A stretch of DNA of 64,000 nt. Origin: Candidatus Doudnabacteria bacterium (GTDB lineage: Bacteria; Patescibacteriota; Doudnabacteria; UBA920; O2-02-FULL-48-8). Below, piece by piece: positions 3,779-32,571 of the stretch. The notes under the pieces are model-generated. The model saw nothing but the letters and a program-made list of their open reading frames with translations. It had not been told where the DNA came from and did not search any database. The stretch lies in NCBI GenBank assembly GCA_039931165.1, contig JBDTSL010000002.1:7134-71133 (forward strand), given 5' to 3'. Numbering within the stretch: position 1 is the first letter of the stretch; each line of letters starts with the position of its first letter. Both the position numbers and the translations under genes were made by a program.

Positions 3779-4062
3779 TTTCAGATTATTCTCCCCTTTT
3801 AGGGGAGATGTCGCGTACTCGCGACAGAGAGGTTGAATTAAATCTGAGTTTAGTTTAGCATAAGCAAAACAATAAAAAAACAGGTTCTAACCACGATACT
3901 TGGAAAAATTTAGTCGGAATTTGAGCGAATTAGCGTTAAAAAACTTGCCTTGTCAGAATGACAACTGCAAGTTTTAGCGAATGAGCGATAAATTTCGGTA
4001 AATTTTTCCCGTGTCGCCAGCTTTTGGCGCCACCTTTTTGTCTGCACAAAAGGTGGCGAATT

Positions 4063-6593: not shown

Positions 6594-6761
6594 AAATTAT
6601 TTCCTTTTTTCCATTGAGCGAGGGCAGCCGCTTCCTTTTTCTGCTCTAGCGAGGTACAGTTGTAAAATTAGCCTTCGGAGGCCGCATCAGCGGCCGAGAA
6701 CGCAGGCTGCAAAATTCGGTAGAATTTTGACAGCCGGTAATTTTCAACTGTACCGAGCGAT

Positions 6762-9452
6762 TTAACATTTACTAAACCCGCACATCTCACACTTTGCGCA
6801 GCCTTCTGCCAAAACCATCATGTTGCCGCATTCCGGACAGCCGGGAGCCAGGCCGTGATTGGCCATGGAAATTTTCTGGCTGGTGAATTCCATGCTGCTG
6901 GTGTGAACTTCTTGCGTGACGGCCTGAAACACCGGTACCTGTTCCGTTTTCGGGATTTCCATCTTTTCCGCGACGGAAAAATCCAATTGCAATTCTTTCT
7001 GTCCGCGCTTGAGATGATTTTCCAAGACATTGGCTATAGCATCGGGCAGAGAAAGAATTTTTTCGCCGTTATGGAACATCGGGTCCGGGCCGCGGATGCC
7101 TTTCAGCTGTTCGGTCACGTCTTGCAAAGAAATTCCGGAGCGGAGCGCCAGAGAAATCATGCGGCAGATCGCTTCGGTCTGAGCGCCAAAAAATCCGCCG
7201 GCTTTGCCGAGCTGGGAGAAAACCTCAAACGGCCCGTATTCATCCTCGTTGACCGTGACATATAGATTGCCATAAGCGGTCGCTACTTTATATGTGGAAC
7301 CCTCCATGACATCCGGACGCTTGCGCGGTGAGACATGGGTCATTTGAGGCGTAGGTTGTGAAGTTGGCATAAATTGCGGGGTTAGTTGTGGTGTTAAAAC
7401 CTCGTCTTTGCGAGCCGTAGGCGAAGCAATCTCTTTTTCTAAAGCTTGGTTACTTAATAGATCTGCCGCGATTTTATTTTCCACTTGATCCGACGCGTCT
7501 TTGCCCAGTTTTTTATGATCCGTGGCCAGGATCTGTTCATCGCGGCTGCCGTCGCGGTAGATCGTGCCGCCTTTACAACCGAGGTCGTACATCAGTTCGT
7601 AAAGTTTTTTCGTCTGCTCGATCGTGTAGTCTTCCGGCGCGTTCACGGTTTTGGAAATTGCCGAATCAGTCCATCTCTGCACCGCGGCCTGGACCTGGAC
7701 GTGTTCTTCGGGAGTCAGTTCCATGGCGGTGACAAAGTAATCCGGCAGCTGCTCGCCCGGATGCGCGTCCAGCCAGTCTTTCGCCAGCTTGATATGCTCC
7801 TTGTGCACGCCTAATCTGGATTTGCGGAAATATATCCAGGAGAAGAACGGCTCAATGCCGGTGGAAGTGCCGACCATGGTGCCGATCGTGCCGGTCGGGG
7901 CTTGGGTCAGGATGGTGACGTTGCGGATGCCGTATTGCCTGACCAGGTGGCGGATATATTCCGGCATGCGCTGCATAAATCCCGATTGTAAAAATTTATC
8001 GGCTTCGAATTTCGAAAACGTCCCTTTCTCTCTTGCCAAGTCCACCGAAGTTTCGTAAGCGGTGATGGAAATAAACTGATAAAGCTTGTCGATGAACTCC
8101 ACTCCCTGAGGACTGCCGTAACGAAGGCGCAACTGGATCAGCATTTCCGCGAGCCCAATGGTGCCCATGCCGACCCTTCTCTCGCTCATCTGTTGCTGGT
8201 AATTCTCGTCGAAGAAATACGGTGTCGCGTCTATGACATTATCCTGAAACCGCACCGCATCCTGCACCGTCCGTTTCAGTTTGTTCCAGTCAACGTCGCC
8301 CGCTTGCCCATCCACGTGCTTGGCCAGATTTATGTGGCCGAGGTTGCAAACTCCCCATGCCGGCAGAGGCTGCTCGCCACAAGGGTTCGTGCACGGCAGA
8401 TCGGCGAAATAATGGGAATTAGAATAATAATTGGCCCGATCAATAAAATACATGCCCGGTTCGGCGGACGAGTGGGCGGAAGAAATGATATTGTCCCAAA
8501 TATCGCGGGCCCGGACGGTCTTGTGTTTGACCACTTTTCCGCCGATCTCGCGCCAGCGGTTGAGGTTGCCGTCCCATCGGTCGCGGTAAAGCACATCCGA
8601 GGTGTCGGGAAAAACCAGGTCCCACGGCTGGTCGTTTTTTACGGCCGTCATAAAATCATCGGTAATGCCCACGGAAATATTGGCATTGGTTATCTTGCCG
8701 GCTTCTTTTTTCGAATTGATGAAATCGATCACATCAGGATGCCAAACATTCAGGATAAGCATCAAGGCACCGCGCCGGCTTCCGCCCTGTTCGATGAGGC
8801 CGGTCACAAAACTGTAAAGCGAAGCCCAAGAGACGGAGCCGGAAGAGCGGCCATTTACACCTTTGACGTAAGCGTAACGGGGCCGAAGCGTCGAAACATT
8901 GATGCCGACACCGCCGCCGCGGGACATGATCTCAGCCATCTGGCTGAGAGTTTCAAAAATTCCGCCTCTGGAATCTTTCGGGGACGGTATTACGTAACAA
9001 TTATAATAGGTCAGATTCTGTCCCGTGCCCGCTCCGGTAAAAATCCTGCCGGCCGGCACGTATTTCCAGTCATCCATCAGGTCGCGGAACCGTCCTTGCC
9101 ATTCGGCCTGTAATTCCGGAGTGGCTTCCACCGAGGCGATGTGACGGGCGATGCGTTCGAACATTTGTTCGGGAACCGTTTCCAAAGGCTTGTCCACATG
9201 TTCAATAGCCCGCGTTTCCAAAGTGCCATCGCGGAGCTTTACCACCACTTCCCGCACATCCTGATTGATCTTCTCCACGACTCCGATCTCCCGCTGGCCG
9301 GTTTTCAGATTAACACAGACAACCACCGTATCACCCACGGCCATAGTTTCTTTTTTGGCGTCTTTAATGGCGTAGCGGTCCAGGAAAATTTTTTCTCCAA
9401 GTTCGGCCAAGGCATTGGTTTTTCGGGCTTGCAGGTTCTCTTTGGGTTGCAT
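6762..9452 (-). CDS. nrdJ: Adenosylcobalamin-dependent (class II) ribonucleotide reductase
   Basis: 896 aa; class II RNR active-site region CGEQPLPAWGVCNLGHINL; C-terminal Cys-rich zinc-ribbon tail CPECGNMMVLAEGCAKCEMCG. Confidence 0.9.
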   Translation of the reverse strand: MQPKENLQARKTNALAELGEKIFLDRYAIKDAKKETMAVGDTVVVCVNLKTGQREIGVVEKINQDVREVVVKLRDGTLETRAIEHVDKPLETVPEQMFERIARHIASVEATPELQAEWQGRFRDLMDDWKYVPAGRIFTGAGTGQNLTYYNCYVIPSPKDSRGGIFETLSQMAEIMSRGGGVGINVSTLRPRYAYVKGVNGRSSGSVSWASLYSFVTGLIEQGGSRRGALMLILNVWHPDVIDFINSKKEAGKITNANISVGITDDFMTAVKNDQPWDLVFPDTSDVLYRDRWDGNLNRWREIGGKVVKHKTVRARDIWDNIISSAHSSAEPGMYFIDRANYYSNSHYFADLPCTNPCGEQPLPAWGVCNLGHINLAKHVDGQAGDVDWNKLKRTVQDAVRFQDNVIDATPYFFDENYQQQMSERRVGMGTIGLAEMLIQLRLRYGSPQGVEFIDKLYQFISITAYETSVDLAREKGTFSKFEADKFLQSGFMQRMPEYIRHLVRQYGIRNVTILTQAPTGTIGTMVGTSTGIEPFFSWIYFRKSRLGVHKEHIKLAKDWLDAHPGEQLPDYFVTAMELTPEEHVQVQAAVQRWTDSAISKTVNAPEDYTIEQTKKLYELMYDLGCKGGTIYRDGSRDEQILATDHKKLGKDASDQVENKIAADLLSNQALEKEIASPTARKDEVLTPQLTPQFMPTSQPTPQMTHVSPRKRPDVMEGSTYKVATAYGNLYVTVNEDEYGPFEVFSQLGKAGGFFGAQTEAICRMISLALRSGISLQDVTEQLKGIRGPDPMFHNGEKILSLPDAIANVLENHLKRGQKELQLDFSVAEKMEIPKTEQVPVFQAVTQEVHTSSMEFTSQKISMANHGLAPGCPECGNMMVLAEGCAKCEMCGFSKC

Positions 9453-9493: not shown

Positions 9494-9937
9494 CTAGAGC
9501 TTCTTGGCTTCCTTTACAAACTCTTCTACATCGGCAAACTTTCTGTAAACTGACGCGAATCTGATATACGCCACCTGGTCTTTGCCTTTTATCCTCTTCA
9601 TCACGATATTGCCGATATCGCGGGAAGGGATCTGGGCTTTGCCTGTTTTCTGGATATCCTGCTCGATGCCGGCGACCAGGGAGTGAAAATCATCGCGGGA
9701 CAAGGGCCTTTTCTCAAAAGCCTTGCGGATGCCCGATTCGATCTTCTCCCGCATATAGGCTTCGGTGCTGCCATCGCGCTTGATCACGGCCAGGTCCAGA
9801 ATTTCCATCTCTTCATGGGTGGAAAACCTGGTTTCGCATTTGATACACTCCCGCCGGCGCCGAATTGCCATCCCATCGGAAATGGGCCGCGAGTCTAAAA
9901 CCTTGGTATCGTCATTTGAGCAGTTGGGGCAGCGCAT
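9494..9937 (-). CDS. nrdR: Transcriptional repressor NrdR
   Basis: N-terminal zinc ribbon CPNCSNDDTKVLDSR...CIKCETRF plus ATP-cone; 147 aa. Confidence 0.9.
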   Translation of the reverse strand: MRCPNCSNDDTKVLDSRPISDGMAIRRRRECIKCETRFSTHEEMEILDLAVIKRDGSTEAYMREKIESGIRKAFEKRPLSRDDFHSLVAGIEQDIQKTGKAQIPSRDIGNIVMKRIKGKDQVAYIRFASVYRKFADVEEFVKEAKKL

Positions 9938-10062
9938 TTTTTAGGTCAAAAAAAATAAGAGAAATTGCTTAGGATAAGCCTCTCGGATTGTTATCAAAAG
10001 AAGCGAAGTTTGTGTTTTATTTAGTTTTTGTCTCCTAATAGAGCTTTATTTGTGCTCTCAAA

Positions 10063-10167
10063 CACTATATGTAGTATTGACCACAGTTACTATAGCCCCA
10101 TATGTAGAAACCTGTCAAAGACCAAATTTTGGCTATATATTGCTCAAGCAAACTAGATGTAGTAAAA
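10063..10167. promoter_or_regulatory. Three candidate NrdR boxes upstream of the nrdR-nrdJ operon
   Basis: acactatatgtagtat (10063), ccccatatgtagaaac (10097) and actagatgtagtaaaa (10152) resemble the NrdR-box consensus acaCwAtaTaTwGtgt. Confidence 0.45.
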
Positions 10168-10217
10168 CTTATCAACACAATTTTTAATTTTCGGAACGCT
10201 TTGTCAAATGACAAAAA

Positions 10218-10334
10218 TTGACAAAAAAATTCGCAAACTGTAAACTATAAGCAACATTAATTTTGCAAAAATTATGTTGCTCGGACACTAAAATACAGTT
10301 GACAAAACGCCCCAAAAGGGCGTTTTTGTTTTTT
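10218..10334 (+). promoter_or_regulatory. Promoter TTGACA-N17-TAAACT followed by an 8-bp-stem hairpin and a strong intrinsic terminator directly abutting the ATP-grasp start. Candidate attenuator leader or small RNA.
   Basis: ttgaca 10218-10223, taaact 10241-10246; hairpin agcaacat...atgttgct 10250-10281; terminator acgccc-caaaa-gggcgt plus ttttgtttttt 10307-10334. Confidence 0.45.
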
Positions 10335-11505
10335 GGAGTATAATATGCTCATGAGTAAATGCATATATTGCGGCAATAATCCCATTCCCCACCGGATCCA
10401 TAAATTTTATTCGTCGATCGACATATGTCTTGAGCCGATCCGAAGAAATTTCAGCCAAAGCCGGTTTGGACGCGCTACTGATAAACTGACCACATGGATT
10501 GCTTTGGGCTTATTTCATCTGCTGCGGCCTTTGGGGCTGATAAAGATCAACCGGGATATAAATCTAGTGCCTTTCCCCCGCGCAAAAGCTCTTTGGCAGG
10601 AAGCTGTTGACCGCGGCATCGAACTGGAGGAAATCAAACTTTTCAATCGCTCAATAGATCTTTACCGGACAAAAATCAGGGGCAAACAAATGTATTTTAT
10701 GAATCTGCCTCGGAAGCAGGATGTGGCGACTTCCAATTTGGCTTGGATAGACGATAAGTATTTGCTTAAAAAAAGACTTTTGGACAATCGTTTTCCGGTA
10801 CCTGCGGGCGGCGCTTACACAAACTTATCGGATGCCGTCAAAACTTTTCAAGCGCTGGACAAACCGGTAATAGTCAAGCCGCGCTCCGGATCCCGCGGCC
10901 GGCATACCACTACTAACATTTATTCTGAGGATGATTTTATCCAGGCCTTCAAGATCGCCAAACAGCTCTGTTATTGGGTCATTGTGGAAGAACATTTATT
11001 CGGCGATGTCCAGCGAGGAACCGTGATCGGCGGAAAACTGGTCGGCGTCTTAGGCGGCTCTCCACCGCGCGTGACAGGCGATGGCCGGCAGACAATTGCC
11101 GAACTGATAAAAATCAAAGATGCCGGCCGGCCGGACAAGGTCAAAGAGACAAAAGTCAATCCATATTTTATGCAGCGCGCGAATCTGACTATGGAGACCG
11201 TACCGGAAAACGGCAAAGCAGTGGATTTGTCGGAGAAGATCGGGGTCAATTACGGCGGCACGTCCTATGATTGCACCCCAGAAACCCACCCCGAAACCAA
11301 ACAAATGCTTCAGCACGCGGCTACGGTTCTGGATGTTTCAATCGTCGGCTTTGATTTTATCGTACCGGACATCACCAGAACCTATAAAGAACAAAAATCC
11401 GGCATCATCGAAGCCAACGGCGCGCCTTTCATCCAGCTCCATCACGATCCGCTGTATGGCCAATCCATCAACGCCGCGAAATATGTTTGGGACCTTATTA
11501 CGTAA
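10333..11505 (+). CDS. ATP-grasp ligase, cyanophycin-synthetase (CphA) N-domain / RimK-like, stand-alone
   Basis: IVKPRSGSRGRHTT, GDGRQTIAELI and EANGAPFIQLHHDP blocks typical of the CphA-type ATP-grasp domain; host-like GC. The real start is probably the ATG at 10345 or 10351. Confidence 0.6.
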   Translation: MEYNMLMSKCIYCGNNPIPHRIHKFYSSIDICLEPIRRNFSQSRFGRATDKLTTWIALGLFHLLRPLGLIKINRDINLVPFPRAKALWQEAVDRGIELEEIKLFNRSIDLYRTKIRGKQMYFMNLPRKQDVATSNLAWIDDKYLLKKRLLDNRFPVPAGGAYTNLSDAVKTFQALDKPVIVKPRSGSRGRHTTTNIYSEDDFIQAFKIAKQLCYWVIVEEHLFGDVQRGTVIGGKLVGVLGGSPPRVTGDGRQTIAELIKIKDAGRPDKVKETKVNPYFMQRANLTMETVPENGKAVDLSEKIGVNYGGTSYDCTPETHPETKQMLQHAATVLDVSIVGFDFIVPDITRTYKEQKSGIIEANGAPFIQLHHDPLYGQSINAAKYVWDLIT

Positions 11506-11518
11506 TTAATTACGTAAT
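11497..11518. repeat. Perfect AT-rich palindrome ttacgtaattaattacgtaa overlapping the ATP-grasp stop
   Basis: Perfect 20-bp palindrome; the same 17-mer aattaattacgtaatta recurs at 32555-32571 after topA. Confidence 0.6.
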
Positions 11519-11531
11519 TAAATATATATTG

Positions 11532-11618: not shown

Positions 11619-12647
11619 TCAGGCGGTCATGACTTTTTCTATCTTCATGACGCTCCTCTGGAAGTCCGAAAGCTCACGGGACACCAGTCGTTGAGTGATT
11701 TTCAGATATCTGCCCGTGCATGCCTCCAACACTTCCGCGGGAACAAGGATGTTGCCAACCTGTTGCTGGCTATGAACCGATTTCGCATCGAGTTTCCCGA
11801 TGTTCACGGTTACATTGTCCGGGTATACGCGAGCCTGCTTGCCCCACTCCCGGACCGGCTGCTTGTCGTAGCCGCCCGGAGCTTTGCCCAAAGCCTGGGC
11901 AGCTCGGTACTCGTCCGCGTCCCAGTAACGGGATGAGTCCGGGGTCGCTATCTCATCGCAGATCATCAGTCCCATGTCGAACTCGAACTTCGTATCGGCG
12001 AAGATGATCCCTTTCTCCCGGGCGTGTTTCCGGATCTGATCGAACAGATGAACCGAAAATATCTCAACACCCAACCCGTAGTTGTCCACCACGTACTCTC
12101 GCGTCACTGGCTCGTCGTGCCCGGATTCAGCTTTGTCCGTGGGGGTGTACATCGGCTGCTCAAGCCATGCGCCGTCGATGAGCCCGTCCGGAAGCTGATA
12201 CCCCCAGAGGTTTCGAGAACCGGATTTGTATTTCTCCCAGGCCGACCCTGTGAGCACCCCGCGAACCACGCACTCGACGGGCATCATATCCCGTTTAATG
12301 ACCACGAGCGCGCGAACCTGAAGTTCAGGCCGGTTGCGCAAACGCAGCGGCAGATATTCATCGATCCCGCTGCCGAAGGCGACGAGATGATGAGCGTGCT
12401 TGGCCAATACTTCTGTCAGGAAGTAGACGGTCAAGGCCGTCAATACTTCGCCTTTTTTCGGCACCAGCGCCCCGAGCACGAAGTCGAAAATTGAGATTCG
12501 GTCGGTCGCGACCACCAGCAGATGGTCCGGATAACCTTCCACTGCGTATGTGTCACGGACCTTGCCTTGGTGGACACGCTTGAGTCCGGCCTGCGCCAGT
12601 TCTTCTGAGATCGCGGATTCGGCAACCGACGGCGGAATGTACGGCAT
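11619..12647 (-). CDS. purC: SAICAR synthetase family protein (PurC-like, long form), island gene 6
   Basis: GKVRDTY...LLVVATDRISIFD matches PurC. RBS aaggag overlaps the stop of the upstream mini-ORF. About 60% GC against a 45% flank. Confidence 0.8.
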   Translation of the reverse strand: MPYIPPSVAESAISEELAQAGLKRVHQGKVRDTYAVEGYPDHLLVVATDRISIFDFVLGALVPKKGEVLTALTVYFLTEVLAKHAHHLVAFGSGIDEYLPLRLRNRPELQVRALVVIKRDMMPVECVVRGVLTGSAWEKYKSGSRNLWGYQLPDGLIDGAWLEQPMYTPTDKAESGHDEPVTREYVVDNYGLGVEIFSVHLFDQIRKHAREKGIIFADTKFEFDMGLMICDEIATPDSSRYWDADEYRAAQALGKAPGGYDKQPVREWGKQARVYPDNVTVNIGKLDAKSVHSQQQVGNILVPAEVLEACTGRYLKITQRLVSRELSDFQRSVMKIEKVMTA

Positions 12648-12659
12648 ACCAGCTCCTTA

Positions 12660-12752
12660 TAGTGAATGCCAAAGCAAAAAAGTTAACAAACCTGCCAACA
12701 TCAGGAGAAGTGGCCAATTCACTCGCAGTGAATGAAAGCCCAAAAAACTCAT
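12660..12752 (-). CDS. 29-codon hydrophobic mini-ORF (MSFLGFHSLRVNWPLLLMLAGLLTFLLWHSL), translationally coupled to the purC-like gene
   Basis: RBS gaggagg 5 nt before ATG; stop TAA lies 9 nt before the purC-like ATG with an aaggag in between; contains the 7-bp inverted repeat attcact-cgc-agtgaat (12717-12733). Confidence 0.4.
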
Positions 12753-12753
12753 G

Positions 12754-12848
12754 AGTTCCTCCTCGAAACTCGAAATATACGATAGTCAATATTACTACGG
12801 AAACGGCTTTAAGAGCAAATGCCCAATAAAAAAGAGTTGAGCGACTTG
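12754..12848 (-). promoter_or_regulatory. Island intergenic cassette D (degenerate copy): hairpin over the purB-like stop, T-run, promoter-like element
   Basis: ctcttttttattgggcatttgctcttaaagccg aligns to the other cassette copies; downstream ttgact...tatatt. Confidence 0.4.
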
Positions 12849-14171
12849 TTAGTCACCCAACCCATTGTGCGTTCCAAACACCTGGTCGAAAATGTGATCT
12901 ATGTACTTGAGTTTCTCGTCAAGCACAAAGCACGACTCGATGTCGGAAGGCGAAACAAGACTTGCGATGCGCGGATTGTCGAGCAGCGCCTGCTTGAAAT
13001 CAGCGCCCGTCTCCCAGCAGGCCTGCGCGATGTCATAGGCCAGAGCGTGTGCTTCCTGCCTGGGCAGTCCGCTTTTGTCGGCAAGCAAGGCCTGCACGTC
13101 TTGTGAAAAGATCAAGCCTTTCGTCAGGCTGAGATTATAGAGCATCCTGTCCGGAAACACACTCCATCCCTTCACGATCCTGGTGAACCTGGCCAGAATA
13201 TAGTCGATGAGAATGGACGCATCCGGCAGAATGATCCGTTCGGAGCCGGAGTTCGAGATGTCCCGTTCGTGAAGTGTCAGCTGATTTTCGTATGCCGCGT
13301 GAGTATATCCCTGGATCACCGCGGCAAGTCCTGAGACGTTCTCCGCCCCGATCGAGTTGCGCTTGTGGGGCATGGCCGATGAACCCTTCTGTCCTTTCCG
13401 GAACGCTTCCTGTAGTTCGCGGACCTCCGTCTGCTGCATCAGCCTTCCGGCCATGGCAAACTTGCGGATCGAACCGGCGATGAGACCGAGCACTGTGACG
13501 TACTCGGCGATGATGTCGCGGGAGATGACCTGTGTTGTGATCGTCGGCACCAGGCCCAACCGCTGACAGACGATCTGTTCGACATTCGGAGGCAGCGTGT
13601 ACATTCCGACCGCGCCGGAGAGCTTGCCCACGGTCAATCTCTTCATCAACTGCTGTGTGCGCTCGAAGTGACGGCCCATCTCATCGTGCCAGTTGGCGAG
13701 CTTCACGCCGAAAGTGATGGGCTCGGCATGCACGGTGTGAGTCCGCCCGATCATCGGCGTGTATTTGAATTCATGCGCGCGTGCCCTGAGGGTGAGCATG
13801 AACGCGATGATATCTTCCTGGATCAGCGTCAGGCTTTCCACCAGCTGTAGCATCAGGCCAGTATCGCCGCAATCCATGCTCGTCATATAGTAATGCCAGT
13901 GAGGCCGGAGTGCGGGCGGCAGTTGCGGCGACGTGTAGTCGAGAAACGCCATCACATCATGTCCGGTGCCGCCCTCCTTGGTCTCCAGTTCTTCAATCGC
14001 ACCAGCATCGATGTTGATAGTATGCTGAAGATCATCGGGGATGGCAACCGAAATTTCTCCCAGTTGCGCGCGGGCGCGCATGGCTTCGACGTCGACCCTG
14101 ACCCAGTTGCGCAGCCTCTGGTCTTCGCTCCAGATCTTTCCCATTGGTCCGCGTGTATAACGGTTAATCAC
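12849..14171 (-). CDS. purB: Adenylosuccinate lyase family protein (PurB-like), island gene 5
   Basis: Fumarate-lyase signature GSSAMPHKRNSIG; N-terminal GKIWSEDQRLRNW; 440 aa; GTG start with RBS ggaggag. Confidence 0.85.
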   Translation of the reverse strand: MINRYTRGPMGKIWSEDQRLRNWVRVDVEAMRARAQLGEISVAIPDDLQHTINIDAGAIEELETKEGGTGHDVMAFLDYTSPQLPPALRPHWHYYMTSMDCGDTGLMLQLVESLTLIQEDIIAFMLTLRARAHEFKYTPMIGRTHTVHAEPITFGVKLANWHDEMGRHFERTQQLMKRLTVGKLSGAVGMYTLPPNVEQIVCQRLGLVPTITTQVISRDIIAEYVTVLGLIAGSIRKFAMAGRLMQQTEVRELQEAFRKGQKGSSAMPHKRNSIGAENVSGLAAVIQGYTHAAYENQLTLHERDISNSGSERIILPDASILIDYILARFTRIVKGWSVFPDRMLYNLSLTKGLIFSQDVQALLADKSGLPRQEAHALAYDIAQACWETGADFKQALLDNPRIASLVSPSDIESCFVLDEKLKYIDHIFDQVFGTHNGLGD

Positions 14172-14263
14172 AGTCTCCTCCGATCAAAGAAACGAAAAGT
14201 GCTTAACGCAGTATAGCAAAAATTGGCAATAAAAAAAGGCGGAGACGAAAGCGTCAACGCCGG
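14172..14263 (-). promoter_or_regulatory. Island cassette A: intrinsic terminator plus extended -10 promoter (TGcTATACT) plus RBS
   Basis: Minus strand: ggcgttgacgctttcgtctccgcc-ttttttt-attgccaatttttgctatactgcgttaagc...ggaggagactGTG. Confidence 0.6.
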
Positions 14264-15293
14264 TTAAATAAATCCGTCCACTTGCCATTCCAGAGTTTGA
14301 CCGGCCATATATGGCCGGACTGCACCGATCATCTCCGGCACTTGCCAGGGCTTTCGGATCAAGACCAGTTTCTCCTTGTTCCTCGGCAACCGGTAGAAGT
14401 CAGCTCCGAAAACCGAAGTGAAGTTGGCCAGGGCATCCGGGTTCGCGTGAACCTGAAATAGCCTGACGAGCTCGGGCATGAGCACGGGAGCCGTGAAGCC
14501 GCCGTTCGCAACCTTGATCGGGCCTTTGTTCGCTGCCGGATGCGGCGCCGAGTCGCTGCCAAAAAATACATTCGGTGGACGACTCTCGTACACGAGCTCC
14601 ATGATCGCTTTTTGATCCGCAAACCCCTGGATCTCCGGCTTCATGATCAGCTGTGGTTCAAGTTCGCCGCCGCGAACGTCGTTCTTGTTGTGCTTCAGGT
14701 GCGCCAGAGTCACTGTGGCCGCGACTGGCCGGGTCTTCTCGTGCATGCGACGAACGAACTCTACGGTCTCGCGACAACTGATATGTTCGACGACGATCCT
14801 CAAAGTAGGAAAATCGTCGGAGAGTTGTTCGACCTTAGGCAAGCAGCTGCGCTCGCGCTGATCACAGTCTACGGCCGGATCCGCATCTTCGGCGTGGATC
14901 TGCAGAACCATATCGCAATCCTGCATCACTTCCAAGCAAGAATAAAGCGGACGAAAATCAACAAGTCCGCCTTTCGAACCGGTTGTAATTCCGGCATACA
15001 ACTTCAACCGGCCAAAGTACGACCGGGAAAATTCCTTGACCATGTATGGGGTCGTTGTTGGTATGAGTTTCGGCGAAACCAGAGTGGTGCAGCCGAATTT
15101 CTGAGACTGATCGTTGCATTCGTCATCATAGGCTTGCGCCTCTGCAACTGTTTCGATCGGGGGTACGTTACCCATGGCGATACATCGGCGGAATTGCTTT
15201 GCTGACCACGGAACCACGTCCTTCAGCATCTCGCCGAAACGAAAGTGGGCGTGCCAGTCGTCCGGCGCGGGAAGGGTAATTTCGTTTTTCACA
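14264..15293 (-). CDS. pyrC: Dihydroorotase, type II homodimeric class (PyrC-like), island gene 4
   Basis: DDWHAHFR zinc ligands, LKLYAG (carboxylated Lys), VVEHIS, FFGSDSAPH all conserved. The ORF-track start at 15340 runs through the promoter element; the likely start is GTG 15293 after ctggagg. Confidence 0.8.
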
Positions 15294-15340
15294 ACTGCCT
15301 CCAGTTTGGAAACCGAAAAGGGCTTAACGCAGTATAGCAA

Positions 15341-15399
15341 AAATTACCAATAAAAAAAGACGGTCACGCAAACGTGCCCGTCCAAACCAACTCATCCTC
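15341..15399 (-). promoter_or_regulatory. Island cassette B: intrinsic terminator plus extended -10 promoter
   Basis: Minus strand: gacgggcacg-tttg-cgtgaccgtc-ttttttt-attggtaatttttgctatactgcgttaagc. Confidence 0.6.
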
Positions 15400-16167
15400 C
15401 TATTTCTTCCTGTACTCTTCGTACGTCGCCCGCAAGGTCCGAAACTCCGCCTTGGGCTTCCAGGCGACGTTTCCCGCCAGAATATCTGTCACCACCGCGG
15501 CGTCATCCTGCTGATACTGCGCCATCTGTCGGTGAAGCAGGCTTTCGACGGACAATGCCCCATGATTCGTGTCCTGATCGGCATAGCTCGTCTGCGCCGA
15601 CCGGTTCCACCACGAACAGATGACCACGACCTGACCGCCGCTGTCTTTGACCAGCTTGATCAGCTGGCCTGTCGTTGAGAAATTGTTCGTGACGTCTTCG
15701 CCGATCGCCACGCGCTCACCCGGATTGATGAAGTGACGGTTGAACACGAATTTCTCCTCGCCTCTCTCCTGGCCGATGCCGGCCGCTACCTGGACCTTCT
15801 CCGGGTAAACATAGCGGCAGCTCATCTCGCAAGCCAGGGCTTGCGCGACAGCCAATCCGCCCATGGGCGCGCCGAGCACGACATTGATGCAGTATTCATC
15901 AAGGTCACAAAGCTCACGCATCCGCTGCGCCCAGATGGCGTAGATCTCCGGATACTGTTCGGCGTAGGCGAAATCGGCGTAGTAGTCGCCGACTTTCTGC
16001 TTCATCGCGCCGCGGCTATCCTCGTACTTGCCCGCATACCCCACGAGCTTCCCGATGCGCGTCCCATCGGGGCGCTTCGGGCAATCATATGTCCCGCCGA
16101 CAAGATCTAGTGTCACGTCCGGGCTGTCCCCCATCGCGCTTCTCAGAAATGTTTTGGGAATCTGCAT
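15400..16167 (-). CDS. pyrE: Type I phosphoribosyltransferase, orotate-PRTase-like (PyrE-like), island gene 3
   Basis: PRPP-binding motif VAIGEDVTNNFSTTG; 255 aa; RBS aaggagg; start 10 nt after the pyrF-like stop. Confidence 0.7.
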   Translation of the reverse strand: MQIPKTFLRSAMGDSPDVTLDLVGGTYDCPKRPDGTRIGKLVGYAGKYEDSRGAMKQKVGDYYADFAYAEQYPEIYAIWAQRMRELCDLDEYCINVVLGAPMGGLAVAQALACEMSCRYVYPEKVQVAAGIGQERGEEKFVFNRHFINPGERVAIGEDVTNNFSTTGQLIKLVKDSGGQVVVICSWWNRSAQTSYADQDTNHGALSVESLLHRQMAQYQQDDAAVVTDILAGNVAWKPKAEFRTLRATYEEYRKK

Positions 16168-16177
16168 TCGGCCTCCT

Positions 16178-16855
16178 TCAGGCTGTCTGAATTTCGGCGA
16201 CCAGGCTTTTCCACGCTTCGGCCGGATCTGAGGCCTCGATCACCTGACTTGCGATCACCAGATGGTGAGCGCCGGCTGCCAACGTTGCCGCCGGTGTTGC
16301 CACGCGTTTCTGATCACCTGCTGCGACTCCGACAGAACGCGTGCCCGGCACGACTCTTTTGAACACGCCGTGCATGTGAATCAGAGACTCCACTTCGAGA
16401 GGCGAACAAACGAATCCAGACGTGCCGCCACTCGCCGCGAGCTCCGCGAAGTAAGCCACAGCCTCTGCCGGAGTTCGGCCGTACATGTCGTGAATTTGCA
16501 TCGAAGTCAGTGAGGTGAGGACCGTGATACTCAATACCTCTAGCCCAGACTCCACCGCCGCCTTGACCATGTCCCTGCCGCCCTGTGCGTGAACCGTGAT
16601 AATGTCGGCTCCGGCTTTCCTGAGCGCCGTCGCGCGGCGGCCCACGGTCTTCGGAATGTCATGAAGCTTACAGTCGACCCAGACCCGAGCCGCGCCGTTG
16701 TCTTTCAATCGCTGAATGATCTCGGGCTGATCACTCCCGTCAAGCAGGTCGTGGACCTTCACGCAGTACGCGTACTGGCCCAAAAGTTGGGTCAGCTCAA
16801 TCGCCCTAGACTCCTTCAGACCGTCCAATGCCAGGATCAAACGTTCGTCTCGCAT
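16178..16855 (-). CDS. pyrF: Orotidine-5'-phosphate decarboxylase (PyrF-like), island gene 2
   Basis: ILALD, CVKVHD, DCKLHDIPKT (D-x-K-x-x-D) and TVHAQGG all conserved. Confidence 0.85.
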   Translation of the reverse strand: MRDERLILALDGLKESRAIELTQLLGQYAYCVKVHDLLDGSDQPEIIQRLKDNGAARVWVDCKLHDIPKTVGRRATALRKAGADIITVHAQGGRDMVKAAVESGLEVLSITVLTSLTSMQIHDMYGRTPAEAVAYFAELAASGGTSGFVCSPLEVESLIHMHGVFKRVVPGTRSVGVAAGDQKRVATPAATLAAGAHHLVIASQVIEASDPAEAWKSLVAEIQTA

Positions 16856-16991
16856 TGTTCTACCCTCGGTTCAACTGTCATTTGTACTGCCAAGCAGTTT
16901 GCTTAGTCGCTATATACTAGCAAATCCCCCAATCGCGAGGCAAATAAAAAGAGGCGTTTCTGAAAGACAACGCCCCGCTGACTTCTTGAAC
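16856..16991 (-). promoter_or_regulatory. Island cassette C: intrinsic terminator after the pyrD-like gene plus promoter-like element upstream of the pyrF-like gene
   Basis: Minus strand: ggcgtt-gtctttcaga-aacgcc-tctttttatttgcc...tttgctagtatatagcgactaagc...gaggg. Confidence 0.55.
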
Positions 16992-18005
16992 CTAGCGCTC
17001 ATAAAACGCACCCGCACGGCCAAGTTTGTTTGCTCGATTGATGATGCGCTGGACCCGCCACGGACGCAAAAATGCGACAGAACCGATTGCGACGGCCGAT
17101 GCTCCTGCCTCCGCCAGCCGATTGACGTCCCGCGGCTTCAGTATCCCGCCGCCGGCGATGATTGGTTTTTTTATGCCTGCTACGCGAGCTTCTCTTACCC
17201 ACTTCACCACCTGCGGCAAGAGATATGCGCCTGACAGTCCGCCGCCGCCAGCTCCTTTAATGTGATTAAGCGGCGATAAAGTGGTCCCAAACATCTTTAC
17301 GCGGTCAGCTTCCGGAATCTCCAACCACGGAATCGTATTCGAGCTGCAGAAGCCGGCGCAGTTGTCATCCTGGGAGATCTCAAATGCCGCTATGATCGGG
17401 AAGTTGGTATTGATCTTCACGATCACCGGTGCGCGAAGCGAGTGCAGGATGGCGGCACTGGCTTTGGTCTCCCGTACTTTCTCGGCGATGATCTGGTCTT
17501 CGTGCTCGACGTTTGGGCAACTGATGTTAAGCTGGATGCCAAACGGGACCTGGAAAGGCCGGAATTGACGAATCATCCAGACCATGTCCCGCAATTCCTG
17601 CAGTCGTTCGTGCATGGTCCCGGCCACCGACATGACCGAAATCTGGAACGGTTTCTCAAGCTTGTGCCAGATTCCTTTATGAAGGAGTTCCGTAAGTCCG
17701 GGCCCTGAAAGCCCGACCGCATTCAGCGCAACGCCGAGCAGAAAACTGCGCGGGCTTACGAATATGCACTTGGGTTTGAGTTCCCGAGGCGTCATTCCGT
17801 CTGACCGCAGCGGCATGTTGCCGCCTTCACAGTAAGCCGGTCCCCGGCGCGGATCGAGAGTTGTAGTCTTGGCGACGAAGGAACAATTATCGAAGCTGAA
17901 ACCGCTCCCTTTCAAGTAGCGATGATAAGGGTAGCCATTGCCGTCGAAATTGCGGATCCCGCTCTGGTCGATGGCGTAGTTGAACCGAATATTTCCAAGC
18001 AGCAT
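16992..18005 (-). CDS. pyrD: Dihydroorotate dehydrogenase family protein, class 1-like (PyrD-like), island gene 1
   Basis: NAVGLSGPG, LNISCPNV (catalytic Cys), GGGGLSGAYL and PIIAGGGI motifs; start ATG 18005 with RBS ggaggag. The ORF-track start at 18056 is a GTG extension. Confidence 0.75.
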   Translation of the reverse strand: MLLGNIRFNYAIDQSGIRNFDGNGYPYHRYLKGSGFSFDNCSFVAKTTTLDPRRGPAYCEGGNMPLRSDGMTPRELKPKCIFVSPRSFLLGVALNAVGLSGPGLTELLHKGIWHKLEKPFQISVMSVAGTMHERLQELRDMVWMIRQFRPFQVPFGIQLNISCPNVEHEDQIIAEKVRETKASAAILHSLRAPVIVKINTNFPIIAAFEISQDDNCAGFCSSNTIPWLEIPEADRVKMFGTTLSPLNHIKGAGGGGLSGAYLLPQVVKWVREARVAGIKKPIIAGGGILKPRDVNRLAEAGASAVAIGSVAFLRPWRVQRIINRANKLGRAGAFYER

Positions 18006-18057
18006 CTCACTCCTCCATGAAAGCTGAAAAAAGGACTTCGAAATATTATAGCACACC

Positions 18058-18110
18058 CAGCAGTAGAAATTCGATTCGCTTCGTGGTAAAAAAATCGAAT
18101 TTCACTGCTG
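18058..18110. other. 18-19-bp inverted repeat at the right island boundary
   Basis: cagcagtagaaattcgatt ... aatcgaatttcactgctg with a 16-nt loop, immediately upstream of the pyrD-like gene. Confidence 0.5.
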
Positions 18111-18112
18111 GG

Positions 18113-18141
18113 CAAGAAAAAGCCGCGGCAATTGCCGCGGC
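18113..18141 (-). terminator. Intrinsic terminator of ftsZ
   Basis: Perfect hairpin gccgcggc-aatt-gccgcggc followed on the minus strand by tttttctt. Confidence 0.7.
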
Positions 18142-18153
18142 TTTCGTCAAAAT

Positions 18154-19278
18154 TTATTTAATTTTTTTCCGTATAAACGCGGGGATCTCCAGTTCGTCCT
18201 GCTCTTGCGGAAGTTCCGGTTCTTCTTCTATCACTTTCGGAGTAAAAAAAGATTTTCTCGGCTCGCTTTTCACCGGCTCTTCCCGCCGCTGTGCCGGTTC
18301 GGCCCTGCGTAAAGTCTCGTCAAACCCGGTGGCCACGACGATGATCTTGACCTCCTCATCCATTTCCTCGTCGATCACGGCGCCAAAAATAATTTTTGCT
18401 TCAGGATCAACCGATTTGGTGATGAACTTGGCAGCTTCCTCGACTTCATACATTCCCAGATCCTTGCCGCCGGTAATGTTGAACAAGACCCCGCGCGCTC
18501 CGTCGATCGAAAGCTCCAAAAGCGGAGAATCAATCGCGGATCGGGCCGCATCCATGGCCCGGTTCTCTCCGGTGCCGCGTCCTATGCCCATCAGGGCCGA
18601 GCCGGCGTTTTGCATCACGGCTTTTACGTCCGCGAAATCCACATTGATCATTCCCGGGGTGGTGATCAGGTCGGAAATGCCTGCAACCCCCTGGCGCAGC
18701 ACATCATCGACGGTGCGGAAAGCGTCGAGCAAAGAAGTTTTCTTGTCGATTATCTGTAATATCCGGTCATTGGGAATGACAATGATCGTATCCACGTGCT
18801 GTTTGAGCGATTCCAGCCCTTTCTCCGCCAATTCCTTGCGCTTGGCGCCCTCAAAAGCAAACGGCTTGGTCACTACCCCGACGGTCAAAATCCCGGTTTT
18901 TTTCGCCAGCTCCGCCACCACGGGCGCGGCTCCGGTGCCGGTGCCGCCGCCGAGGCCGCAAGTGATAAATACCATATCGGCGTTTCTTATCACGTCCAAT
19001 ATCTGATCCTTGCTTTCTTCCGCGGCCGCCCGGCCGATATCCGGGTTCATGCCCGCGCCCAAACCTCTGGTGATGGTCTGGCCGATGTGGATCTTGTGGT
19101 CGGCCGCCGAGTTATGCAAAGCCTGCGCATCGGTATTGATGGCCACAAACTCAACGCCTCTGATGCCGGTCTCCATCATGCGATGAATGGCATTGTGCCC
19201 CGAGCCTCCGACGCCGATGACTTTTATCCGGGCAAAGGTTTCAATTTTCGGTTTAACTTCCGAAGATCTAAATTTCAT
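18154..19278 (-). CDS. ftsZ: Cell division protein FtsZ
   Basis: GGGTGTG tubulin signature; 374 aa. Confidence 0.95.
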
Positions 19279-19280
19279 AA

Positions 19281-20528
19281 TTATGGCAAAAAAGATTTAA
19301 ACCACTTGCGCAAATTAGTCACAGTAGTGTTTTCCAAAACAGTGCGGGTAAATTTATTCACTGTGCGGGTGGAGCCTAGCAAAAATTCATTGGCCCAAAG
19401 CACCAGCCCGACTGCGGTGGCATACGACGGATCATCCACTCGGTCGATAACCGTGGTCACCGAACCGGGAGCTCCGGCGATTACAGGCAGGCGGAGCTGC
19501 TTTTTTGCTAATTCTACCACTCCGGGGAGCTTTGCGCCACCGCCTGTCAAGACGACTCCGGCCGGCAGTTGTCCGTCTTTATTTATTCTTTTCAATTCTT
19601 TGTTGATCAGATCAAAAGTTTCTTCCAAACGAGCTTCAATGATCTCCGCAATGTGCTTGGTCGAAACTTTGCCCTCTTCTTGCTTGTCGATTTTACTTAA
19701 ATCCACATCCACGTCTTTTTTTACCTCACGCATCTCGGCCTGGCCGTATTGCAGTTTTACTTTTTCCGCGGTATCCACCGATGTGCGCAGGCCGATCGCC
19801 AGGTCATTGGTGATATGCATGCCGCCGACAGGCAAAATTGTCGAGGAAACCAGATCTCCTTCTTCAAAAACCACCAATCCGGTGGTTCCTCCGCCCAGAT
19901 CGATCACAGCCACGCCCAGTTCTTTCTGTTTTTTTGACAAAACAGCCTGCGCCGCCGCCAGCGGGGCCAGGACCAGATCATCGATCTCTAATCCCGCCTG
20001 CTGAATGCATTTGGTCAGATTTTTTATGAACGGCACCGAGGCCTGGATGATCTGACTGTCCACTTCCATGCGGATGCCTGACATTCCGACGGGATCTTTA
20101 ATGCCGGTCTGGCCGTCGACGGTAAAATTTTTGGGGATGACATGCAGGATCTCGCGGTTGGCAGGTATAGAAATAGCCTGCGATGCATCCACTACCCTCA
20201 CTACGTCATTTTCCGTTATTTCACCATCAGCCCTGGATACTGCCACTACTCCATGGCTTTCCTGGGAGGATATTTGCGCGCCGCCCACAGACACTACGGC
20301 GTGGTCGATCGTCAATCCGGTCATGCGTTCGGTTTTTTCCAAAGCTTCGGAGATCGAAGATACGGCTTCATCAATATCCACGATAACGCCGCGGCGGATG
20401 CCTTGCGATACGGCTTCACCCACGCCAATAATGCTGGGCGAGCCCAGTTCCGATTCCTGTTTGCCTACGACCACCCGGATCATTGAGGACCCGATATCGA
20501 GGCCGACAAATATGCGTTCTTTTGGCAT
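19281..20528 (-). CDS. ftsA: Cell division protein FtsA
   Basis: Actin-like ATPase; N-terminal [17 protein letters not shown]; 415 aa; 2 nt from ftsZ. Confidence 0.9.
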
Positions 20529-20530
20529 AC

Positions 20531-20971
20531 TTATTTCAAATTTTCTTTAACAATTTTTGAGATCATGCCGCCGTCCGCCTGGCCTTTTACTTTTGCCATA
20601 ACTTCTTTCATGACCTTGCCGAAATCAGCAGGTGTGGCATTCATGCCCATAACGACATTTTTTACGATCGAGGAAAGTTCGGTTTCATCCATTTGCTTCG
20701 GCAGATATTTTTGCAAGACTTTCATTTGTGCTTGCTCATGCTGTGCCAGGTCTGCTCTGGCGCCGGCAGTGAAACTCTCTATAGAATCCTTATGCTGTTT
20801 TACTTTCTTTGCCGAGACAGCCAAGATATCTTCATCGGCAAGGGGCTTGCCCTTTTCAATTTCCGCATTTTTCAAGGCAGCCTTCAAGTTCCGCAATGAG
20901 GAAACAGCCACTTCATTTTTCTCTTTTTGGGCTGTTTTCAGGTCTTCGTCTATTTGTTGGGCAATAGTCAT
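20531..20971 (-). CDS. yqeY: GatB/YqeY-domain protein
   Basis: 146 aa with YqeY-family similarity. Confidence 0.7.
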   Translation of the reverse strand: MTIAQQIDEDLKTAQKEKNEVAVSSLRNLKAALKNAEIEKGKPLADEDILAVSAKKVKQHKDSIESFTAGARADLAQHEQAQMKVLQKYLPKQMDETELSSIVKNVVMGMNATPADFGKVMKEVMAKVKGQADGGMISKIVKENLK

Positions 20972-20976
20972 TTCGA

Positions 20977-21225
20977 TCAGCGTCTTTTAAATCTAGTTGT
21001 GGGCGGGAGTTTGCCCTGGCGTTTTAACTCTTCGCGTTTTTCACGGTTGACTGCGCGTCTGGCCGCGTCTTCCCGCAATAAATTGCGGGACCGGTTCGGT
21101 TCATAAAACCGGATTCTGCGAGCCCGCACCAAAACACCGCTCTGCTGGATCTTGCGGTTGAATCGCCTGAGCAAACTTTCAAATGATTCGTTATCTTTAC
21201 GTTTAACTTCTACCAAAAAACTCAC
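20977..21225 (-). CDS. rpsU: 30S ribosomal protein S21
   Basis: FESLLRRFNRKIQQSGVLVRARRIRFYE is typical of S21. Confidence 0.85.
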   Translation of the reverse strand: MSFLVEVKRKDNESFESLLRRFNRKIQQSGVLVRARRIRFYEPNRSRNLLREDAARRAVNREKREELKRQGKLPPTTRFKRR

Positions 21226-21335: not shown

Positions 21336-22655
21336 CTACTTCCCCAGCCTTTTTTTGACTTCCTCAATAATTCTTTCGTATGTAAACAGTTCCTGCATGC
21401 CGCTTCTTACATCGCGGAGGATGACTGTGCCGTCGCGCGCTTCTTTTTGGCCGATGATCAGGGCGATCGCGACTTTATTGGATTCGGCCAGCTTGAGCTG
21501 GGTCTTGATCGAGCCGGGTCCGACGAACTCGGAAGCCATGATGTGATGGTTCCAGAGCTCGGTGAACAATCGCAAGGTTTTTTTCGCGGCCAGATCGCCC
21601 AAAGGGACCAAAAAAACATCAACTTTGTTCTTGCTGACGAATTTCAGCTGCGCAAGTTCGAACGCCGCCAAGATCGAATCCAGGGTTCCCGAAAATCCCA
21701 AGGCCTGGGTCGGCAATCCGCCCAAACTTTGGATCAGATCATCGGCGTGTCCGCCCTGCCCTAAAGCCAAGCCGCCCGCAGGTGAATGGAAGCGGATCTC
21801 AAAAACAGTCCGTTTCGACCAGGGCTTGCCGATGACTTTTTGGTTCAGATTGTAAACTATTCCCAGCTCATCAAGGCCTTCAAGAACACCGATAAAATGC
21901 CGGCGGCAATTTTCGCACAGATAATCGATCAGAGCCGGCGCATCAGCGGCAGCGGTCGAGCAGGACAAATTGGCGCAGGCCAAAATTTGCAGTGACTGGT
22001 TATTTTCCAGGTAGTCCAGGCAGTTTTCGCACAAATCGTATTTTTTATCTTTGAAATAACTTTTCAGCTGCTCCTGGTACGTCGGCAGACATTCGATACA
22101 GCCGATATTGTTGATCTCCAGCGACAGGTCATTTAGCCCGATCTCGGTGAACAATTTCAGGATGAGGTTGATCATCTGGGCATCGGCGATCGGAGCTGTT
22201 TGTCCGAAGAGCTGAAAACCGTATTCATGGGTCTGTTTTATATCATCGCCCGAGACAAAAGCTATCGGCGACGAATAATACCACTTGCTGACTCTTTCTC
22301 TTTCGGGAAAATGATATTCCAAATAAGCTCTGACCAAACCGAAAATATTGGCTGGCTTGGCCGCTATTGGATTTCCTTTCCGGTCAGCGAGAGTCAATAG
22401 ACGGTCTTTACCGTTTGACCAAAAGCCGAACAAATGGGCATCCTCGAACATCGGCGTGTCGATTTTGACATAGCCGAAATTATGCGCCAGAGTCACCAGT
22501 TTTTCTAAAAAAACATCCCAAGACAAATGATGCTCAGGCAAAAGATCCGCAGATCCTGTAAGCCTGGGCGGAGCTTTTTCGATTGTCGGGGTGATTTTGC
22601 GCGGTCGTCCCATAAAATTTCGAAGAAATTTTACCCCGAGTGAGTCCCGATTCAT
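21336..22655 (-). CDS. Divergent HisS/HisZ-like class II aaRS paralog with a Cys-rich insertion
   Basis: HisS-like anticodon-binding domain at the C-terminus; GGRYD motif replaced by GQGGHADD; insertion CIECLP...CENCLD...CSTAA...CENCRR. Confidence 0.6.
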   Translation of the reverse strand: MNRDSLGVKFLRNFMGRPRKITPTIEKAPPRLTGSADLLPEHHLSWDVFLEKLVTLAHNFGYVKIDTPMFEDAHLFGFWSNGKDRLLTLADRKGNPIAAKPANIFGLVRAYLEYHFPERERVSKWYYSSPIAFVSGDDIKQTHEYGFQLFGQTAPIADAQMINLILKLFTEIGLNDLSLEINNIGCIECLPTYQEQLKSYFKDKKYDLCENCLDYLENNQSLQILACANLSCSTAAADAPALIDYLCENCRRHFIGVLEGLDELGIVYNLNQKVIGKPWSKRTVFEIRFHSPAGGLALGQGGHADDLIQSLGGLPTQALGFSGTLDSILAAFELAQLKFVSKNKVDVFLVPLGDLAAKKTLRLFTELWNHHIMASEFVGPGSIKTQLKLAESNKVAIALIIGQKEARDGTVILRDVRSGMQELFTYERIIEEVKKRLGK

Positions 22656-32552: not shown

Positions 32553-32571
32553 TAATTAATTACGTAATTAA
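32553..32571. repeat. Palindrome taattaattacgtaattaa immediately after the topA stop
   Basis: Same 17-mer as at 11504-11520. Confidence 0.6.

Follow-up and report, generated by a model that had tools for sequence, protein, structure and literature searches.

Probable autonomous nucleotide-metabolism units and a twice-used promoter-leader module in the ftsZ-nrdR island of a Candidatus Doudnabacteria genome

Promoter-coupled terminators, in which a termination site lies at most 35 bp upstream of the next start on the same strand, are over-represented between functionally related genes in tandem, where the T-tract aids the promoter and intergenic space is saved, the modal gap between termination and start being 10 bp (Fletcher, Forrest, Cooper, Adams, Kapanidis, Grainger; bioRxiv 2026, 10.64898/2026.08.19.745784). 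The layout of a terminator running into a promoter is already described and ordinary by itself, and we extend it here, by prediction, to an uncultured lineage of the Candidate Phyla Radiation (CPR, Patescibacteria). The subject is a GC-rich nucleotide-metabolism island (11619-18005, minus strand), composed of pyrD / pyrF-pyrE' / pyrC / purB / small open reading frame (ORF)-purC and located between ftsZ and nrdR in a 64-kb stretch of Candidatus Doudnabacteria DNA (contig JBDTSL010000002.1), hereafter the window, meaning the whole stretch that was analysed. As in promoter-coupled terminators, the T-tracts of gaps 1-3 of the island stand just upstream of the next predicted -10 element on the same strand, and the genes are tandem and related (pyrD, pyrF, pyrE', pyrC, purB and purC, all on the minus strand). 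Unlike those terminators, the ones of the island are predicted only, with a gap of about 28 nt to about 40 nt, and the host is an uncultured CPR bacterium outside that study.

Mosaic operons reportedly arise by in-situ xenologous gene displacement, as Omelchenko et al. are said to have described in Genome Biology in 2003. The island resembles them in its functional slots, which are the same between conserved flanks and are occupied by distantly related homologs in close relatives; unlike them, it does not look like one operon, each unit having its own predicted terminator and promoter, and its gene order is also permuted. Concerted evolution by gene conversion is known, for example, from tufA/tufB and the rRNA operons, and the spacer modules around pyrC show the same signature of paralogs more alike within a genome than orthologs between genomes, except that the tract homogenised here would be a non-coding promoter module of 40-80 nt and not a gene. 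Integron cassettes, which are usually promoterless, share with the island the arrangement of single genes bounded by repeated sequence in a variable array, whereas in the island no attC-type structure and no integrase was found among the neighbours, and the repeats are promoter modules.

The reading that we consider probable is that the island is made of autonomous units with promoter-coupled terminators in a gene-replacement hot spot, and that a promoter-leader module flanking pyrC was duplicated and later homogenised by recombination. What is noteworthy is the setting, in which the pyr and pur genes of one and the same ftsZ-nrdR slot differ from relative to relative in mix, order and origin, each unit appears to be insulated on its own, and a promoter module recurs before non-orthologous ORFs. 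Nucleotide synthesis is patchy in CPR bacteria; the island contains pyrC, pyrD, pyrE', pyrF, purB and purC without pyrB or carAB, and, judging from the island alone, its nucleotide pathways look partial. Its genes are as follows.

16992-18005, minus strand: pyrD, ATG start at 18005-18003
16178-16855, minus strand: pyrF
15400-16167, minus strand: phosphoribosyltransferase (PRTase)-like gene, named pyrE' here
14264-15292, minus strand: pyrC, GTG start at 15292
12849-14171, minus strand: purB
12657-12752, minus strand: small ORF of 31 aa
11619-12647, minus strand: purC, ATG at 12647

Since pyrF and pyrE' are coupled (10-nt gap) and the small ORF and purC likewise, the island comprises five units and not one per gene, separated by gap 1 (pyrD-pyrF), gap 2 (pyrE'-pyrC, 15293-15399), gap 3 (pyrC-purB, 14172-14263) and gap 4 (purB-small ORF). 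A sequence-only reading of this DNA had ended gap 2 at 15341, a limit that came from an over-extended ORF with a TTG start; the pyrC product counted from the GTG at 15292 is 342 aa long and agrees with a database protein (100% identical, NCBI, Candidatus Doudnabacteria). The same reading had described one layout in all four gaps, consisting of a hairpin, a T7 run, a conserved block of about 35 bp carrying an extended -10 element, and a GGAGG-type ribosome-binding site. The hairpin, a T-run and the GGAGG-like site followed by a start codon were indeed recovered in 4/4 gaps, whereas the extended -10 is confined to gaps 1-3 and the T7 run to gaps 2 and 3, gap 1 having T5 and gap 4 T6.

Folding and direct reading both place a stem-loop abutting the T-run on the minus strand in each of the four gaps, and in the ftsZ-pyrD gap too. 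By sequence these five sites are predicted intrinsic terminators, defined as a G+C-rich stem-loop followed by at least five T after a stop codon, and are listed with their folding energies and z-scores against shuffled sequences.

18116-18148, minus strand: predicted ftsZ intrinsic terminator, GCCGCGGCaattGCCGCGGC then T5 (dG -17.7, z -5.0)
16951-16976, minus strand: gap 1, hairpin of the predicted pyrD terminator, with T5 at 16946-16950 (-12.9 kcal/mol, z -0.85)
15359-15383, minus strand: gap 2, hairpin of the predicted pyrE' terminator, GGACGGgCACGtttgCGTGaCCGTC, with T7 (-14.1 kcal/mol, z -1.7)
14238-14261, minus strand: gap 3, hairpin of the predicted pyrC terminator, GGCGttGACGctttCGTCtcCGCC, with T7 (-12.1 kcal/mol, z -3.7)
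12828-12863, minus strand: gap 4, predicted purB terminator, a 13-bp stem spanning the stop codon, with T6 (-19.1 kcal/mol, z -6.2)

The density of this terminator layout is special to the island. Terminator-like sites, taken as hairpins of -8 kcal/mol or better ending at most 3 nt from a T-run, occur in 5/5 island spacers vs 7/24 of the other co-directional window spacers of at least 40 nt (Fisher p = 0.007), and in 28 of the 33 island spacers of the window and seven related loci. Hairpin sequences differ between genomes while the structure persists, and because the hairpins are kept in so many spacers though their sequences are not conserved, the terminator structure appears to be under selection. 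The idea of a separate terminator and promoter for each gene survives at the level of units, which look autonomous, and not for pyrF-pyrE' and small ORF-purC, which are coupled.

The homology between gaps is narrower than the sequence-only reading proposed: judged by local alignment, only gaps 2 and 3 are homologous, as two copies of a promoter-leader module on either side of pyrC.

15284-15375, minus strand: copy A, promoter-leader module upstream of pyrC, including part of the predicted pyrE' terminator (its 3' arm); T7 15352-15358, TGCTATACT 15331-15339, GCGTTAAGC 15322-15330, GGAGG 15298-15302, GTG 15290-15292
14163-14254, minus strand: copy B, promoter-leader module upstream of purB; T7 14231-14237, TGCTATACT 14210-14218, GCGTTAAGC 14201-14209, GGAGG 14177-14181, GTG 14169-14171

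A repeat finder returned exactly this two-copy family (92 nt, 76% identity), and the 20-mer TTTGCTATACTGCGTTAAGC occurs twice in the 64 kb, even with up to three mismatches allowed. The search for copies of the module covered the 64 kb of the window. When gap 3 was aligned locally with all window spacers, gap 2 scored 86 and gaps 1 and 4 scored 23 and 20, at the level of background (six unrelated spacers scored 24-26, and the maximum of the shuffle null was 28); in comparisons of spacers, a semi-global identity matrix was uninformative, with a background of 0.7-0.8. The alignment of the four spacers thus bears out the shared block for one pair and not for the other two gaps.

The two copies seem to evolve in concert, paralogs within a genome being closer than orthologs between genomes. 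Locus L002 (related loci are numbered L0xx), which has the same gene order, carries pyrC-flanking modules that are 97% identical over 77 nt, from within the terminator 3' arm to the ATG. The modules of the window and of L002 are 65-75% identical, about as much as the pyrC DNA itself (70%), and of the informative sites in the four-way alignment, 13 join the paralogs and 0 join the orthologs. The cores of the two genomes present 10 differences, all common to both paralogs and including the -10 hexamer (TATACT vs TACAAT). Module, pyrC and module together form a shared block of ~1.17 kb (window 14195-15363, minus strand, 69.7% DNA identity), recovered as a single blastn high-scoring segment pair that aligns window 15363-14195 with L002 9927-11095, beginning with the upstream module's first base and ending in the core of the downstream module. 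The genes next to this block, pyrE' and purB, are 24% and 35% identical at the protein level, with no comparable alignment between the two genomes, and appear non-orthologous. Within-genome module pairs around pyrC were also scored in L002 (137), L007 (86) and L010 (62), against a background with a median of 19 and a 90th percentile of 26; the L007 pair brackets a pyrC located between pyrD and pyrF, and the L010 pair brackets pyrC and one small gene.

What the remaining gaps have in common with this module appears to be the generic promoter of the genome, a T-tract followed by TGCTAnAnT and often by AAGC. The extended -10 elements stand after the T-run in gaps 1-3 (TGCTAGTAT in gap 1, TGCTATACT in gaps 2 and 3), and they and the pyrD element agree with the sigma-70 definition, namely TGn directly upstream of TAnnnT, suitably spaced from the start codon; gap 4 does not, having no -10 at the equivalent position and no homologous promoter block after its terminator. 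Two further elements are as follows.

18045-18053, minus strand: putative extended -10 of pyrD, TGCTATAAT
16914-16943, minus strand: predicted pyrF promoter of gap 1, TTGCCT, an 18-nt spacer and TAGTAT with TGc, at canonical spacing (extended -10 at 16914-16922)

The pyrF promoter is not homologous to those of gaps 2 and 3, its top match being the orthologous pyrF spacer of L007 (score 31), and an orthologous pyrD promoter, TG(c/t)TATAAT(a/g)TTT(c/t)GAAGT, is found in L007 and L012. The claim of identical promoters at all genes is therefore reduced to two homologous copies among promoters of a common type. In the window, TGCTAnAnT has 10 sites, 8 of them truly intergenic and the other two labelled as coding through over-extended ORF calls, after correction of which intergenic DNA shows a ~30-fold enrichment of the motif; among the intergenic sites are the pyrD promoter and positions 911, 3852, 60224 and 62871 ahead of unrelated genes, and the site at 3852 has the T7-ATTG-N9-TGCTAAACT arrangement of gaps 2 and 3. 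The putative extended -10 motif of sigma-70 type marks most of the recognisable promoters of the window, as TGcTAtAcT does in gaps 2 and 3. AAGC lies 4-9 nt after the -10 in 5/9 intergenic TGCTAnAnT sites, and 10 times after all TGNTANNNT sites where 4.1 are expected; because it is common after the -10 elements of this genome, part of the regulator box GCGTTAAGC proposed earlier looks generic. The generic part of the block is widespread in bacteria: a metagenome scan with the pattern TTTTTTATTG-N5-8-TTTGCTAYAMTG gave 24 matches in unrelated bacteria (GC 0.26-0.61), many with a hairpin that is plain to the eye directly ahead of the T-run, none related to the pyrC-flanking module and none of the 24 containing GCGTTAAGC.

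A near-perfect hairpin of 55 nt (18057-18111, minus strand), single-copy in the window, separates the ftsZ terminator from the pyrD -10; the 104-nt gap comprising it and the terminator folds at -50.4 kcal/mol (z -9.8). In the orthologous spacers of L007 and L012 this hairpin is absent and the T-run directly abuts the -10.

The comparison with relatives, comprising eight Doudnabacteria loci recruited through pyrC homologs and two (L038 and L039) through purB homologs, sets the island apart from its flanks. A scan of the genome collection with a pyrC alignment returned one locus, equivalent to L003, and two other pyrC proteins, P0004 and P0008, stand at 70-71% identity. The flanking genes are listed here, followed by the amino-acid identities of the window proteins to those of four relatives, with further loci for purB.

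21336-22655, minus strand: hisS
20977-21225, minus strand: S21
20531-20971, minus strand: yqeY-like gene
19281-20528, minus strand: ftsA
18154-19278, minus strand: ftsZ
10333-11505, plus strand: ATP-grasp gene, between purC and nrdR
9494-9937, minus strand: nrdR
6762-9452, minus strand: ribonucleotide reductase (RNR)

Flanks hisS, ftsA, ftsZ, nrdR and RNR: 76-94%
pyrC: 76% to L002; 52-54% to L012, L007 and L003
pyrD: 61% to L002, 58% to L007, 26% to L012
pyrF: 36-45%
pyrE': 24-39%
purB: 30-35% to L002, L003, L007, L010 and L012; 69-70% to L038 and L039
purC: 68-72% to L012 and L007; 29% to L002

Overall, island genes are 19-80% identical with affinities in conflict, the window being nearest to L012 and L007 by its flanking genes but nearest to L002 by pyrC. 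L007 and L012, whose ftsZ and RNR are 93-94% identical, likewise differ in pyrD (35%, partial alignment), pyrE' (19%) and purB (31%), and at least seven gene orders occur between the same flanks. The GC content of the pyrD-purC stretch reaches 55.9% vs 47.8% in the remaining window, and the island exceeds its flanks by 4-11 points in the 6/6 loci examined (window, L002, L003, L007, L011 and L012). The suggestion of an assembled locus is thereby upheld, with island genes of discordant histories beside conserved flanks, and the pattern points to a fixed slot in the chromosome where genes are displaced one by one and shuffled, which would give a reason for every unit having its own signals.

Insulated units fit this comparative picture, because island genes are permuted or replaced by distant homologs, yet the terminator-promoter layout persists. 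In the mechanism that we propose, a hairpin and T-tract would end one transcript, RNA polymerase would restart close to the A of AAGC, ~7 nt past the -10, and a short unstructured leader with GGAGG would drive translation, an insulation that would allow expression of each unit at any position. The T-tract leads directly into the next promoter in gaps 1-3, and the predicted distance from termination to start, measured between the final T of each run and a start placed 7 nt past the -10, comes to 28 nt in gaps 2 and 3 and to about 39-40 nt in gap 1. The promoter-leader module of 75-92 nt would have been duplicated around pyrC, in connection with the placement of pyrC there, and the copies, 1.1 kb apart, would have been homogenised by recombination between them, so that pyrC and purB would receive the same promoter core; this step of duplication and gene conversion is inferred. 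A candidate control by UTP-sensitive reiterative transcription was rejected, the TTTT runs of the leader being too far from the predicted start (by eye).

Several observations weigh against this reading. All terminators, promoters and start sites are predicted from sequence; the hairpins of gaps 1 and 2 fold no better than shuffles (z -0.85 and -1.7), and gaps 2 and 3 have no -35 element at 16-18 nt, so that activity would depend on the TGn motif. Four of the nine comparison loci, L003, L009, L011 and L012, with a pyrC of the window type, have no repeat pair around it, whereas L038 and L039, whose pyrC-like genes are all distant, show repeated spacer modules at other places in the island. Independent re-duplication, lineage by lineage, would leave the same pattern as gene conversion. 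Finally, the window copies form a mosaic, 92% identical in the promoter core (T-run to about +12) and 61% in the leader, which also fits selection on the core as opposed to neutral homogenisation.

That last mosaic is what selection on a binding site would give, and it is the starting point of the rival that we regard as unlikely, a shared operator or small regulon in which one regulator would bind both promoters, co-control pyrC and purB and keep the core identical. The operator candidate, ATTGsyAATTTTTGCTATACTGCGTTAAGC (about -25 to +5), overlies the -10 and start site, a position typical of repressors, and clearer shared elements exist in this island of other Doudnabacteria (a palindrome in L007 and L038, a PaaX_M-like gene in L003). 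Yet the box GCGTTAAGC, described from the start as non-palindromic, is without dyad symmetry, and it reads GCCGAGACGC in the orthologous module of L002, so that the site is not conserved between orthologs. The 10 core differences between the window and L002 reach into the -10 hexamer, a change that a regulator would not drive, and identity of the two L002 copies extends across the leader, ribosome-binding site and ATG, which copying fits better than selection on a site. Moreover, the AAGC is generic after -10 elements, and no regulator gene was found among the annotated genes in or beside the window island.

Co-direction and functional relatedness of all the genes would also suit a single polycistronic operon, in which the hairpins would serve to stabilise or process mRNA, or as weak attenuators, with the -10-like motifs inactive; two thermodynamically unremarkable hairpins and the missing -35 of gaps 2 and 3 point the same way. 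We judge this very improbable in view of the hairpin and T-run kept across genomes despite sequence turnover, of the intergenic enrichment of TGCTAnAnT and of a gene order freely permuted in relatives, which an obligate operon would resist. By far the least credible explanation, and one already largely refuted, would make the spacers cis-regulatory RNAs (PyrR-type attenuator or riboswitch) or mobile repeats (miniature inverted-repeat transposable element, MITE, or integron attC). Repeated intercistronic attenuators do occur in pyr operons of Firmicutes, and direct repeats around a single gene recall mobile elements, but Rfam gave nothing credible at gathering and E-value thresholds (best sub-threshold E ~0.5), and the ~36-nt leaders fold no better than shuffles (z -1.0 to +0.1). 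The 64 kb contain only two copies of the repeat, which lacks terminal inverted repeats, and there is no recombinase among the annotated neighbours; the inverted repeats are terminator stems only, with no integrase among the annotated neighbours within ~10 kb (hisS, S21, yqeY, ftsA, ftsZ, the ATP-grasp protein, nrdR and RNR), and the units have their own predicted promoters, unlike integron cassettes.

An extension of our preferred reading of insulated units with a homogenised module is decidedly speculative, and we think it doubtful. The promoter-leader modules would be portable homology bounding single-gene cassettes, a functional counterpart of an integron array that works without a recombinase. 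Recombination between modules would let individual nucleotide-metabolism genes of the ftsZ-nrdR hot spot be moved, duplicated and replaced with no dedicated recombinase, an arriving ORF gaining host expression signals and the downstream gene a fresh promoter copy. If modules were indeed recombination substrates, this would explain how streamlined symbionts swap metabolic genes singly without loss of expression.

Repeated or palindromic elements are also present in the islands of relatives. In L007 (9922-9946 and 11125-11149) and L038 (14588-14602), the stretch from the terminator T-run to the -35 contains a perfect palindrome, with CACCAAAaTTTGGTG as its core. It precedes pyrC genes that are mutually 34% identical and non-orthologous, and in L007 also pyrF; it is a candidate operator conserved across gene replacement. 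This palindrome, CACCAAAATTTGGTG, is absent from the window island, and its matches in the window are at chance level. In L003, a long palindrome ttgtcgcaaaaacaatgtaattacattgtttttgcgacaa (11084-11140 / 11845-11901) stands on both sides of a small PaaX_M-domain gene of the island, which suggests autoregulation of that gene and control of purB, and L039 has a PaaX_M-like gene in its island (12879-13675) with palindromic sequence on both sides (by eye). L038 carries a hairpin module ACGGCTCAGAC..GTCTGAGCCGT before pyrD and pyrF (13476-13576 / 16863-17015, by eye), and L039 an AT-rich module of ~115 nt before pyrD and pyrC (6647-6907 / 8487-8745, by eye). In the window, the likeness of the gap 2 hairpin to an Escherichia coli PurR half-box (~13/16 positions, by eye) was attributed to the palindromic stem and is absent in gap 3.

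The small ORF preceding purC encodes a hydrophobic peptide of 31 aa, MSFLGFHSLRVNWPLLLMLAGLLTFLLWHSL, behind a strong GAGGAGG site (12758-12764, minus strand), and its stop overlaps the ribosome-binding site of purC. A similar small ORF, with GFHSxRxN in common, lies ahead of the non-orthologous purC of L002. The window peptide may serve as a leader peptide, or it may be a small membrane protein.

Elsewhere in the window, the palindrome TAATTACGTAATTA occurs three times vs 0 expected (11495-11520, 32557-32570), as two tandem copies in the convergent gap after purC and one copy after a gene ending at 32548, and is a possible site of protein binding. Two exact copies of a 36-nt sequence, AATTCCGCCAAAGGCGGATCCGCCTCCGGCGGAAAA, form a direct repeat at 53558-53593 and 60738-60773, 7.2 kb apart and apparently within two plus-strand ORFs. 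The divergent region upstream of nrdR (9938-10332) is dense in promoter-like sites and contains the repeats ctatatgtagta / ccatatgtagaa, which resemble NrdR boxes, with similar sequences upstream of nrdR in L038 and L039.

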